Positions 3,827 through 26,250 of a stretch of DNA of 30,497 nucleotides are shown in pieces (position 1 is the first letter of the stretch; every line of letters begins with the position of its first letter). The position numbers and the translations under genes are program-made. The stretch spans positions 1 through 30,497 of the IMG/VR virus record IMGVR_UViG_3300001866_000283, one strand, 5' to 3'. The DNA comes from a virus (lineage: Duplodnaviria; Caudoviricetes). The notes beneath the pieces were generated by a model. It worked only from the letters and a program-made list of their open reading frames with translations. It did no database searches and had not been told where the DNA came from.

Positions 3827-6800
3827 TTAGAAGGCCTTTCCAGTCTTGATTTGATCCGCTACTTCGCGGATCACTGATTTATTATTTTTCTCCAGGACGC
3901 TCGTCAACTCGTCCTTTGATAGGCCTGATCCATTGATATTTTGGGTGATGTTTATTACCACATTCTGTCCCTGTGCCTTCGCTGCTGCCGCTTCGAACCG
4001 AGCCGCGCCCACCACGTACTCGCCACCTGGCCTGTCTCCCACTACCGCAAGCGTGGGAGATGCCACGTAGCCCTCATTAGCGAAGGAGAGCAGAGGCGAG
4101 AAGTAGTACTGGCTAAGTAGCTGTTGTGCGGTTTTTTTAGAAGATGATGATGAAGATGAAGTGCCGGATGTCTCGTAGCCAGGATCGTCATATTCAATGA
4201 ATATAGTTTTCGTAATAGATCTTGCCGCTGCCAAATCGATTGCAGCAATCGACTTCAGCGCGAGAGTATCGTTGATCTTGACGAGCTTGGATTTTTCGGC
4301 GGTAGCATCTTCATCCAGTTTATCAATGTTGGCTTTTGCTTCTGTTGTCTCTACGCTTATCTCTTTTGTAGTGTCCTCATCTTCATCCTTACCAGCGAAA
4401 CTGATGTTTACGTATTTCGTATCCGATGCAGTGATTTCGTCTATGACAGCAGCCGCCATGCTCGTATCAGCCGTTACTTGCACGGTTTTTATGTCACCAG
4501 TCCAACTATCGACTTTCTCGATTGCGCTATCGACACTACCAATATCAGTCGCAAAGCTGATCTTTTTAGCTTCGCCCGTCCATCCCTCGATTTTTTCAAA
4601 TTCTAAATAGACGTTACTTGTATCGACCCCGAACGATACAGTTTTTTTGCCTGCGATTCTATCTTCTAGTTCCTGAAGAGCTTTGTTGGCTTCGTCGCAA
4701 TCGGCATCTACTAACAGTTTTCTAACCACTTCATCAGATTTCCCAGAATAGCCCGCCGCCAGCCAGTGGTACCAGTCCTCAGTCGATCCTATGAAGTTTT
4801 TATAGAACATCTTGTCTTCATAAGAACCTTTGGATGCATTCTCCGCAAAATTCGTTAATGTTTCAACGGCAGAGGCGGTTTTATTGGCTTCGTCACTGAT
4901 TCCCTTTAGAGCCGTGCCTGTGTCTATTAATCCTTTCTTATATTTTTCAAGAATTTTTAATTGTTTATTGGAGAATAGACCGCGCGTCTCTACATCTTCT
5001 GATGCTTTTACCATCGCATCAACATAATCCGAGGCCATCTCCCTGGCTTCGCCGTATCCACTGTCCCACTGCCCCAGGTAGAAATCTATTTGATCGGCTA
5101 TCTGAGGCTGGAAGGTGTTGTCGATGAAGTCCTGAAGGGCATCTTCACCGGATCCTACAATGGTATCTATTGTGGATGGATTGGCAATTATATCAGCCAA
5201 ATCGATTGACCCTGCTATATCGGTCATCGAAGTGCCGAAAATACTGGTGTCGGCAGTGACCTTTAACACGGCAGGCGAGTTCTCTGAATAATCCTCGACT
5301 ATTTGTTTGGCTTTCTCAACCAGTTCCCTGAGATTGTCATTGTCCGGATCGAAAAGGAGCTTTGCTTTGAGATCTTCATAATTCTCGATTGCCTCCTTCA
5401 ACGAAGTCAGATAGATTATGGCATTGTCTGTGCCTTGTGCCTTTGCCGCTTCGGGATCATATATCTGAAGATTCTTCAGGTTGTCTATGCTTTCCTGGAT
5501 ACGGTCGGTATCGAGAAGCAAGCCCTCAGTGAAGGCATCCCCGATTTCTTCTCCTATGCCAGATAGCTCTGTTTTGATATTTTCGGCATAGTCGATGTAT
5601 TGATCGACAGCGCCCGACAAGCTAAGTTTTTCTTCTATAATCGCTTTTGCACTGTCATAGTTGCCAGCTTCCAATGCCGCGATCAGCTCTAAAGCAGCAT
5701 CGCCACCAATAGCTGCGAACTGCTCCGGGAAATACTCTTGCAGAAATTCTATTTGTGGCTTAAGGCCTAACAGCTCATCTGTTTCAGTGCTGTTGATTAT
5801 GCCATCAGAAAGCGCCGCAGTTGCTGTATCTCCAATGCTTTCTAACTGATCCTTTACAAATTGGTCTGCATCGACTACCTGAGAGGCAATCTCTTCTTTG
5901 TATAGCCTGATATCATCTGCCGCGTCGCCGGTCAATAGGTTGCCCAGCTCGACGTTATCAGTGACTGCCTCAATGAACGATCCGATGTTTTCTATCGTCG
6001 GCTCTCTGGCGGCGTCCAGCATCGATTGGAAAGCATCTACAGCTTCTTCAGATGCATTTTCACCTATCAACCGTCCAGATCCTTCTAGCTCGTATTGAAG
6101 GGTCTCACTGATTCCAGTATAGTCATATTCTATCTTTGCGGATTGGCTGAGCCTCCAGACAGCAGCCTCTCCGACCTTCCCGGTCACATCTAGGACATTG
6201 CCCTCGTTGTAACCAAACCCGGAACCTTCCAGCAGTTTTCGGGTAGATTCTTCTAGATTGGCTCCATAGACAGCATCCCCTATCTGCTGACCATCTATGA
6301 AGAGCCTGGACATTATGCTCTTGTTGTTCCCCTGATACGCGACTTCGACTTCCAGGCCACTATCGAGTTTCGTAGTCGTGGTTCCCGCAACATTGCCCTT
6401 GCTAGCGGTCGTACCCCGTGCAAGGAGCTTGGAAATGTCTCTTTCGGTCTGCTGCTGCTTGAATTCTTTTTCGAATTCATCCCAGTATCCTTTCGCTGAT
6501 TCTTCCCCGGCAGCGCCACCTACATTGATTCCAGCCTTCTTAGCGGCCTCGATGTTCTCAGGGCTATCGAAGTCTGCCGCCTTTGACAATGCCTCATTCA
6601 GTTCATCGCTGTTTTCTATACCCTCAGCCACACTGGCAGCAGATGCCTCTCCAGTAGCCATGATTTCAGAGGCACGCGAGGACACCGAATCAACAAATCC
6701 AAAGATACCTCCCAGTGGTGAATCCTTGATCGCGTCCTCAAAGTACCCACTGGCAGCGTTCCCTGCCTGTCCCATCAGTGAACCTATTGCGGAGGAGAAC

Positions 6801-24544: not shown

Positions 24545-25171
24545 CTATGCCACACCCCCTGTCTCGATTTGCTTTGAGGTATCTACTTCGAAGCATCCGT
24601 ATGTTCCCGACAGAACTTTAGGGGCTGATGGCCGCCATTCTCCAATGCCAACCATTCCGGCAGCATTAACGAGCGAAATTATGTCCTCGACCTTGAGGAT
24701 ATTAGCATTGAAAGTGATTGAGAGGGTTGCAGACCATTCAGGAAACTCGGCCCGATATCTGAGATCGGCCACGCCTGTTTCTAAGCGAACTGGATCTTCT
24801 CTCATGTGGTGTTCGCCCTCGATTCGCACCAAGTAGCCGTTGACTCTGATGATGGTTTTTGCTAGAGTCATTGGCAGGCCGTCAAACATTCGGCAGGCTC
24901 CGACAATCGCTGCCTTAAACCCCGGTGCGGGAAAACCCGGCTTGCCATCCGGCATTAGGTACAATGACGCCTTGTAGTCGGCTTCCGGATCTTTGGGCTC
25001 CTTTTTAGCCTTCGGGGCATTCTTCCCTGCCATTTGCTTTTCAAGCATCTGGCGTTTGGCTTTGGCGCTCCAGTTATGTACTATGAGAGGCGTTATGCCT
25101 TTGATCGGAACCTTTACAGTTTCCAGTTTTAAGGACTGGATTGTTACTACTTTATCTCCACCTTTTGGCAT
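24545..25171 (-). CDS. Stand-alone RAMP/Cas7-like RNA-binding protein
   Basis: 208 aa with RAMP-style motifs in order: first strand IKGITPLIVH, P-x-x-x-F-K helix (FPAPGFKAAI), R-x-EF strand (RYRAEFPEW), and a C-terminal Gly-rich loop plus strand (GMVGIGEWRP...GTYGCFEV). GGAGG SD at 25181-25185. No other cas genes in the window. Confidence 0.75.
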   Translation of the reverse strand: MPKGGDKVVTIQSLKLETVKVPIKGITPLIVHNWSAKAKRQMLEKQMAGKNAPKAKKEPKDPEADYKASLYLMPDGKPGFPAPGFKAAIVGACRMFDGLPMTLAKTIIRVNGYLVRIEGEHHMREDPVRLETGVADLRYRAEFPEWSATLSITFNANILKVEDIISLVNAAGMVGIGEWRPSAPKVLSGTYGCFEVDTSKQIETGGVA

Positions 25172-25199: not shown

Positions 25200-25517
25200 G
25201 AGACTGGCGCAACAAGGCGCAGCGAGACCGGACTTAACTTGACATGACTGGCATGTCCTGACGGAACCAGGCTTGACCCGACGCAAGGGGACATGACTCG
25301 ACTGGCCTGCCGGGACTTAGCCTGACGAAACCCGACCTGACTCGACAGAGCCCGACTGGCTTGCCAGGACCGGACGCAGCAGGACCTAGCAAGGCAGAAC
25401 GCAACTCGACTTGACTCGACTGGCAGGACTTGGCCCAACTCGACATAGCTCGGGGCGACATGACAGGGCTTGACATGACTGGACTGGCCTGACAGAACTC
25501 GACTAGCAAGACAAAAC
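25200..25517 (-). ncRNA. Array of GYY-NN pentamers in units delimited by GCCA (putative guide RNA array)
   Basis: On the minus strand, GCCAGTC recurs (+ strand gactggc at 25202, 25246, 25300, 25354, 25418, 25482) with spacings 44, 54, 54, 64, 64. Between delimiters lie 8, 10, 10, 12, 12 in-register pentamers; 47 of 52 begin GYY and 29 begin GTC. The repeat structure is directly seen; its being an RNA is inferred. Confidence 0.8.
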
Positions 25518-25558
25518 GATGCACCTGACTCTTCCAGGATTTTCGTGATGGGTGCATC
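25518..25558 (-). other. Inverted repeat/hairpin at the 5' end of the array
   Basis: GATGCACC (25518-25525) and GGTGCATC (25551-25558) form a perfect 8-bp stem directly abutting the first pentamer. Confidence 0.5.
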
Positions 25559-25569
25559 CAAAGTATCGG

Positions 25570-25953
25570 TCAAGCAGCCTCCGCTTTCGCCTTTGGTGCT
25601 GCTTTGTTCAACCTGACCAATCGCAACAATGCGTCTTTTTCGTTCTTGGCCCAAACGAAGTACGTCGTGCCCTCGTGCGTGCCTTCCTGGATGCCTTCTG
25701 TGGCGGCAGGCGGCCAGGTGAGGCTGACTGTTGCCGGTAGTTGCGGCTCTCCTCCGATGATCTCGACCAGGATCTGGTAGGGCTGCAGGCCGGCTTCGAT
25801 CTGCTCTCGATATGGGTCTGTTTCCCGGCTGATGATCTCCGCACCAGGATCGAGCTGCCTGACGATGGCCAGGGTTTTCTTCAGCAGGAGGACATCCGTG
25901 TATGGTCCTGCCCAGTCGTCCCCCAGTTCCGTGGCAATTGCGTACATCTTCAT
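25570..25953 (-). CDS. Hypothetical protein whose C-terminal motif matches array unit 2
   Basis: Track ORF 25570..25986; the likely start is MKMYAIATE after a GGTGGAG SD. The C-terminus contains EKDALLRLVRLN. Confidence 0.75.
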   Translation of the reverse strand: MKMYAIATELGDDWAGPYTDVLLLKKTLAIVRQLDPGAEIISRETDPYREQIEAGLQPYQILVEIIGGEPQLPATVSLTWPPAATEGIQEGTHEGTTYFVWAKNEKDALLRLVRLNKAAPKAKAEAA

Positions 25954-25994
25954 CTTTGATACTCCACCAAACTTGATTTGAATCAACTGCGTTT

Positions 25995-26250
25995 CCTTGA
26001 CATCTTGTCAAGGTGCTCTTCTCTCTCTGGGACCCCCGGAACCCCCGGACTATCCCCCTGGACAAAGACACGATACACTAACCTTGACAAACTGTCAATA
26101 TGATACAGTAGACCTGATTTATCTTCTAAGGCAATTTATCTCTAGGATAATCCCTCCTGGGAAAATCGCCCCGTCTCGGCTCCACTTGGAGCTTCATGGG
26201 AGCACCTTGACAAACTGTCAAGGTCGTCGTTTTCTTGACAAGATGTCAAT
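25995..26250. promoter_or_regulatory. Four TTGACA-N3-TGTCAA palindromes around an AT-rich core (origin iterons or operators)
   Basis: Copies begin at 25997, 26084, 26207 and 26235 in a non-coding gap; AT-rich stretch at ~26096-26150. Confidence 0.75.

Follow-up and report, generated by a model that had tools for sequence, protein, structure and literature searches.

A staggered VIPR array in a virus of a likely methanogen host, with one guide predicted to target sibling-virus homologs of the gene beside it

Here we report a staggered guide array in a viral genome fragment of 30,497 nt (IMG/VR record IMGVR_UViG_3300001866_000283, positions 1 to 30,497; the whole of this stretch is called the window below). 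Judged from sequence, the array and the two genes that follow it almost certainly constitute a VIPR system, and the second of its five units very probably targets homologs of the neighbouring gene in kin viruses. The feature is real, was correctly read in an earlier note on this DNA and is a variant of a system already described in preprints. What lies beyond published VIPR is the virus's own copy of the unit-2 site, which is locally recoded at codon position 1. The virus is likely one of methane-making archaea, and likely silences its rivals by the VIPR mechanism.

Table 1. Features of the array locus, in window positions
Feature	Position	Strand	Remarks
Candidate vap accessory gene, 170 aa	24032..24544	minus	next after vipr; phrog_15946, unknown function
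vipr gene, 208 aa, RAMP/Cas7-like	24545..25171	minus	directly after the array
Staggered vrRNA-type array	25204..25488	minus	five units of 12, 12, 10, 10 and 8 pentamers (triplet G-Y-Y plus NN)
Unit 5	25209..25248	minus	matches at chance level
Unit 4	25253..25302	minus	predicted target: ATPase half of a split terminase
Unit 3	25307..25356	minus	predicted guide to a D5-type primase gene, same kind of element as unit 1
Unit 2	25361..25420	minus	predicted guide to sibling-virus homologs of the neighbouring 127-aa gene
Unit 1	25425..25484	minus	predicted target: small TerS-like gene in integrated elements
Degenerate 5′ portion of the array	25489..25540	minus	few broken pentamers, read from sequence
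127-aa gene, family targeted by unit 2	25570..25953	minus	122 homologs
Own copy of the unit-2 site	25606..25641	minus	18/24 match; Leu/Arg codon position 1 recoded, plus Ala to Val

Successive units of the array (Table 1) overlap by 1 nt and are joined by a 4-nt GCCA step, with six GCCA/G joints. Triplets across the 52 pentamers are GTC (29), GTT (7), GCT (6), GCC (5), GGC (2) and others (3); 47/52 are G-Y-Y and 2/52 GGY, with G at position 1 in 50/52 and Y at position 3 in 52/52. No structured 3′ tail separates one unit from the next, as just the 4-nt joint lies between them. The stretch from 25350 to 25698 is found unchanged in a run of another study (X2) and is therefore not an assembly artefact.

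The sole PDB match of the window Vipr is the Vipr of SUSP1 (36pp_D), found with an E-value of 6.9e-4 from the single sequence, and a profile of 110 homologs compared with SUSP1 Vipr gave 3.2e-8. R138, D177, W178 and R179 of the SUSP1 protein align with R140, E178, W179 and R180 of the window protein, which are invariant or nearly so across the 110 homologs. The predicted model (pLDDT 89) matches Cas7/Csm3 chains (Foldseek E down to 2e-7, TM about 0.45-0.55), a likeness in predicted fold to class 1 CRISPR proteins (type VII, III-A). The locus nevertheless does not fit class 1 CRISPR-Cas: the window holds no repeat family of a CRISPR repeat-spacer array, a Pfam scan of 11 window proteins returned no cas families, no other cas genes were seen at the locus, as opposed to the multiple cas genes of that class, and the guide is gapped rather than contiguous. 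What was found agrees with VIPR in its broad sense, namely a small RAMP homolog that has a thumb and a G-loop and is not part of a CRISPR locus; adjacent tandem pentamers of a fixed triplet plus NN, where the published wording allows GGY “or a related consensus” and relatives of the window array form a graded series to GGY; a 1-nt skip in the wobble register for units 1-4; and the 1-nt unit overlap of the staggered-array form. The strict GGY triplets of type II (SUSP1-like) VIPR, and its structured tails between units, are both absent, and because GGY makes up 2/52 triplets we do not class the array as type II. A homolog of the candidate accessory gene comes after vipr in 9/9 related loci (L006-L014), and the Atlas matches of its protein are unnamed viral clusters.

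The earlier note had read the unit-2 dinucleotides as codon positions 1 and 2 with every third base skipped, and had proposed that they spell the end of the gene beside the array. The dinucleotides are exactly as it listed them, and 11/12 residues are compatible with the neighbouring gene, which encodes EKDALLRLVRLN at 25641-25606 (minus strand). In the shuffling control that it had suggested, the best residue fit among 2000 order-shuffles over all six frames of the window was 9/12, with 0/2000 reaching 10. Reading two bases of three while passing over the wobble position is, however, the rule already published for VIPR, which makes this a correct rediscovery rather than a new code. At the DNA level the virus's own copy matches unit 2 at 18/24 bases and 6/12 dinucleotides; since 46/1000 shuffles attain 18/24 somewhere in the window, the DNA-level self match alone is marginal.

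Sibling viruses match better than the genome's own copy, as expected from the proposal that the true target is a homolog in related viruses. Unit 2 scores 22/24 (10/12 dinucleotides) in L001, L002, L016-L018, L021 and L035, and at most of these sites one of the two mismatches would form a U-G wobble pair; 22/24 passes, and 18/24 fails, the published 80% target cut-off. Among 12 records retrieved by protein homology, nine exceed the 18 of the own copy (22, 22, 22, 21, 20, 20, 20, 20 and 19) and the three with a different peptide fall below it at 16-17, while five further homolog records score 21-22, a range biased upward because they were picked by a relaxed pattern. The site-level tabulation of homologs excludes L005, L023, L032 and duplicates, which were scored in the 12-record comparison. 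The real dinucleotide order reaches 16, 17 and 17 at gaps of 0, 2 and 3 nt as against 22/24 in homologs at gap 1, where 0/300 shuffles over 22 sequences rose above 19; this gap comparison is not blind, because it was homology to the gene that brought in the compared loci. All 12 unit-2 residues fit in 37 of the 120 homologs listed (122 in total), and the unit spells the family consensus Ala (113/120 homologs) where the own copy has Val.

The perfect unit-2 matches that had been predicted were found neither in viral contigs (0) nor in metagenome contigs (0). The relaxed pattern gave seven metagenome stretches, two of them duplicating L001 and L002, and none in genome contigs, and 0/105 Methanotrichaceae-family genomes carried unit 2 at three or fewer mismatches. 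One contig (X3) apparently matches at 23/24, a value deduced from differences at a depth of 2.1 and not relied on. The 127-aa target protein belongs to no Pfam or PHROG family; its predicted model has a pLDDT of 84, with a best VIA Z of 4.2 among 48,161 chains and a best Atlas value of 0.77. DUF7336 was considered as an identity for it and rejected, as this top BFVD match had an E-value of 4e-4 but a TM of 0.37, and no function was assigned.

One Methanotrichaceae-family genome carries a target-gene homolog, and the 105 genomes of this family were therefore searched with the remaining guides. Unit 1 gave five matches in 4/105 genomes at 21-22/24, each of them in a small gene that precedes a split terminase, with none for the reversed control, one unrelated match for a gap-2 version, and none in viral contigs or in five sequence records. 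Unit 4 gave three matches at one orthologous terminase-ATPase site (18-19/20; control 0) and one further match, at 19/20, in a viral contig. Unit 3 gave two (control 0), of which one, at 19/20, lies in a D5-type primase and the other, at 18/20 and out of frame in a chaperonin-like gene, is likely due to chance; it had no match in 16 virus records. Unit 5, with four unrelated matches as against two for its control, is at chance level and was assigned no target. The accepted matches of units 1-4 are all in sense and in the wobble register, and units 1 and 4 both match a single contig (G042:C11). Both strands having been searched, all accepted guide targets show one orientation, with the guide in mRNA sense on the minus-strand reading. 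We also observed that window unit 4 and a guide at 1819-1883 of the related locus L006 address the same terminase site, the longer L006 version matching L069 at 22/26.

The integrated elements concerned (L064, L062, L065, L060 and L071) form a family of small elements in Methanotrichaceae-family genomes, with genes for an integrase, a large primase, a small TerS-like protein and a terminase whose ATPase and nuclease are encoded separately. In genome G007 the integrase, primase and split terminase lie within about 10 kb beside host genes (selected ORFs scanned), and L071 also has tail-fibre genes. The TerS-like gene has no relative in viral contigs, and one weak match aside there is no protein homology between the window virus and the elements. 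From gene order, the elements appear satellite-like and the small gene TerS-like. The host is likely a methanogen of the Methanotrichaceae, an assignment that rests on the guide matches, on the target-gene homolog in a Methanotrichaceae genome and on a Vipr with a similar array in genome G048. A ParE-type toxin gene was noted inside the G007 integrated element (L060 17042-17419).

The virus's own unit-2 site shows local recoding, at position 1 of Leu and Arg codons. For this site, which was chosen after the fact for these statistics, 5/6 Leu/Arg codons differ silently from the sibling at position 1, as against 4/116 such codons in the rest of the four genes shared with it (p 3.5e-6); Leu is TTG in 4/4 codons as against 0/10 elsewhere in the gene (p 0.001), the TTR share of Leu codons over 28 genes being 13%; and nowhere else in 38 ORFs do four TTR codons fall within a span of 12. 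Compared with other homologs, the Leu/Arg contrast is weaker or absent (p 0.06-1.0 for 5/7). The changes comprise Leu CTN to TTG, Arg AGR/CGN swaps and one Ala to Val, a residue that 5/120 homologs have at this position. All six mismatches with the guide are non-wobble and none can wobble-pair. Five of them fall in dinucleotides 7-11, at the 3′ side where, in the available text on SUSP1, R-loop pairing starts (10.64898/2026.04.26.720927; 10.64898/2026.10.15.759431), while the first four dinucleotides match and their codons offer no silent position-1 change. The own copy has the lowest unit-2 score among homologs with at least 66% identity and the motif. The suggestion that the guide is robust to synonymous escape thus stands as far as wobble skipping goes, and fails at Leu and Arg codons, 6/12 here, which is where the own copy differs.

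On balance we lean towards self-avoidance as the cause of the recoding; selection against binding has a reason, because a filament bound there would lie in front of the array and vipr. Within the same VIPR system, it is possible, if somewhat doubtful, that the recoding arose instead as an escape from the guides of other viruses, or as a patch recombined in with the cassette. Other homologs, some of them without VIPR in the slot (L003; X3, X4 and X7 contigs), likewise have TTG, CGA and AGG at the site, with alleles similar to the window's in X3/X7 and X4, and the pooled non-window homologs have an excess of TTR across the site (12/50 as against 11/110 upstream, p 0.028). The site is also more alike to L006 (0.81) than to L001 (0.69), and the TTG at position 6 matches the virus's own guide, which most homologs there do not, so that plain self-escape fails at that codon unless the guide has drifted. 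Against these points, the own copy is the most extreme (4/4 TTR plus the rare Val) and scores lowest among similar homologs, and immediately past the site L001 (0.82) and L006 (0.79) show similar identity, leaving no clear imported tract.

That unit 2 is a weak self-targeting guide, giving negative feedback on the operon of array and vipr, seems improbable. The site does closely precede the array and share its direction, with its first four dinucleotides matched, yet 18/24 is below the published target level and within the range of shuffles, the guide spells the Ala of the family rather than the virus's own Val, and the VIPR papers, in their available text, report no self matches at 80%.

The array is probably transcribed from the minus strand, a reading based on its relatives. 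The related locus L008 has a canonical GGY array with GGCAG joints on the vipr-sense strand, L009-L013 are mixed GGY/GTY intermediates on the same strand, and L007, L006 and the window are mostly G-Y-Y; in L007 and L076 the array is preceded on the vipr-sense strand by a TATA-like box. A minus-strand RNA would be of the same sense as the targeted mRNAs and would pair with template DNA. The earlier note had argued from this sense to DNA targeting: the DNA targeting agrees with the published VIPR rule, while the strand itself is a probable reading from these relatives. There is little to suggest that the RNA is instead the plus strand (GAC/NN), with guides antisense to mRNAs that could act on RNA. 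The four decoded units share one orientation relative to their genes, GAC/NN is listed among non-canonical VIPR motifs in the available text of 10.64898/2026.10.21.760802, and SUSP1 VIPR is reported to pair with RNA in vitro; but the GGY array of L008, in which the joints are the same, lies on the vipr-sense strand, the GGY/GTY mixtures of L009-L013 and the boxes in L007 and L076 point the same way, and G occupies position 1 in 50/52 triplets on the minus strand. A mere by-product, whether chance or a degenerate duplication of the end of the neighbouring gene, might be suspected from the proximity and the marginal DNA-level self match and can largely be dismissed, since the unit is a better fit to other viruses than to the gene beside it, 0/2000 shuffles equal it, three other units read by the same rule have coherent targets and no control matches, and the stretch recurs unchanged in X2.

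Taken as a whole, the data are probably best explained by a VIPR locus in which unit 2 would guide a Vipr filament to the DNA of kin viruses and repress the target gene. By analogy with SUSP1 work, the array would give a minus-strand transcript that is cleaved at the staggered joints; one Vipr per pentamer would hide the triplet and pair NN with two of three template-strand bases, and the bound filament would, again by analogy, block transcription of the target. Units 1, 3 and 4 would restrain the satellite-like integrated element, and unit 2 would handicap co-infecting or resident kin. The own copy, directly upstream of the array and vipr and in the same direction, would have escaped through silent Leu/Arg changes and the Ala to Val replacement.

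Phage free-standing homing endonucleases form a cassette that aims at the neighbouring gene in relatives lacking it, the own allele being resistant. The window system differs in being RNA-guided and in having no nuclease identified. A close sibling (L001/L026), in which four flanking genes are 85-98% identical in amino acids, has two other genes in place of the array, vipr and accessory gene. We put forward tentatively that the VIPR cassette may be a homing-like element in a variable slot, its guide directed at a conserved flanking gene in siblings lacking the cassette and its own allele protected by Leu/Arg recoding. If this homing-like reading is true, the Leu/Arg loophole would also fuel a family-wide arms race at the site. 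The closest VIPR relative (L006, 86%) has a first guide unrelated to those of the window, and its six best matches all lie in the window's target-gene family, just upstream of the unit-2 site. The best DNA match of this guide, 18/22, is itself at the top of the shuffle range, and its protein fit is 9/11 residues in 5/120 homologs as against a shuffle maximum of 7/11 in 500.

The available text of Yoon et al. (10.64898/2026.04.26.720920) describes VIPR as reading NN with a 1-nt skip on the wobble base, with DNA targets on either strand and repression as the outcome, and also describes related consensus motifs and staggered arrays whose units overlap by 1 nt. As far as that text goes, the window shares with these staggered-array systems a RAMP-like Vipr with one candidate accessory gene, the pentamer array, the wobble-register skip, the 1-nt-overlapping units, rival mobile elements as predicted targets and an own genome under 80% match; it differs in its G-Y-Y rather than GGY triplet, in its likely methanogen host and in that one target family is the gene beside the array itself. 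With the type II VIPR of SUSP1, as presented in the available portions of 10.64898/2026.04.26.720927 and 10.64898/2026.10.15.759431, it has in common the thumb and G-loop residues and, as predicted here, anti-satellite targeting, and a lower self-match is reported there for vrRNA-targeting guides. The window units, however, are without the pseudoknot tail, and they target primase and terminase genes whereas the SUSP1 target is a recombinase. The same SUSP1 text holds that escape needs amino-acid-determining changes, whereas in the window silent position-1 changes at Leu and Arg codons suffice to mismatch. Evo-PIN (10.64898/2026.10.21.760802) reports, in its available text, 21 clusters with non-canonical triplets beside Vipr-like folds, including GAC/NN, which is the reverse complement of the commonest triplet of the window array (GTC); that text was not found to describe targets, strand evidence or self-avoidance for such arrays. 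In the available text of the VIPR literature we found neither targets of an archaeal non-GGY array nor silent Leu/Arg position-1 escape, and its figures and data files may include such a clade.

The window thus supplies natural targets of a staggered array whose triplets are not GGY, from a virus with a likely methanogen host, and extends support for the skip rule past the enterobacterial and Pseudomonas systems tested. It also offers a matched natural pair of sites, 22/24 in kin and 18/24 in self, that encode nearly the same peptide and constitute a test of mismatch tolerance; the pair likewise probes the claim that silent escape is closed to targets. The main opponent indicated is a family of satellite-like elements in Methanotrichaceae.

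Guides were also parsed from relatives, seven in L006, five in L007 and three in L076, out-of-phase others being skipped, and most were without any match above shuffles. The guide at 1327 of L076 matches L034 at 17/18 and that at 5346 of L007 matches L030 at 15/16; both matched loci are proviruses of the window-virus group, reached here by guides from relatives at a greater distance. The distant arrays of L007 (5313) and L076 (about 1190) have in common a nearly identical short unit that is out of phase and possibly represents an old conserved guide.

The slot between 25570 and 24035 of the window holds variable cargo, namely VIPR here and two other genes in L001, and its length is about 870 bp in L002 and at most about 260 bp in L003 and L016-L018. 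Between a 257-aa gene and the target gene (25994-26249) lie four palindromic copies of a TTGACA-N3-TGTCAA-like repeat and a 9-nt tandem duplication; these are also present in L001 (about 5700-5960), and may possibly be a replication origin or an operator array.
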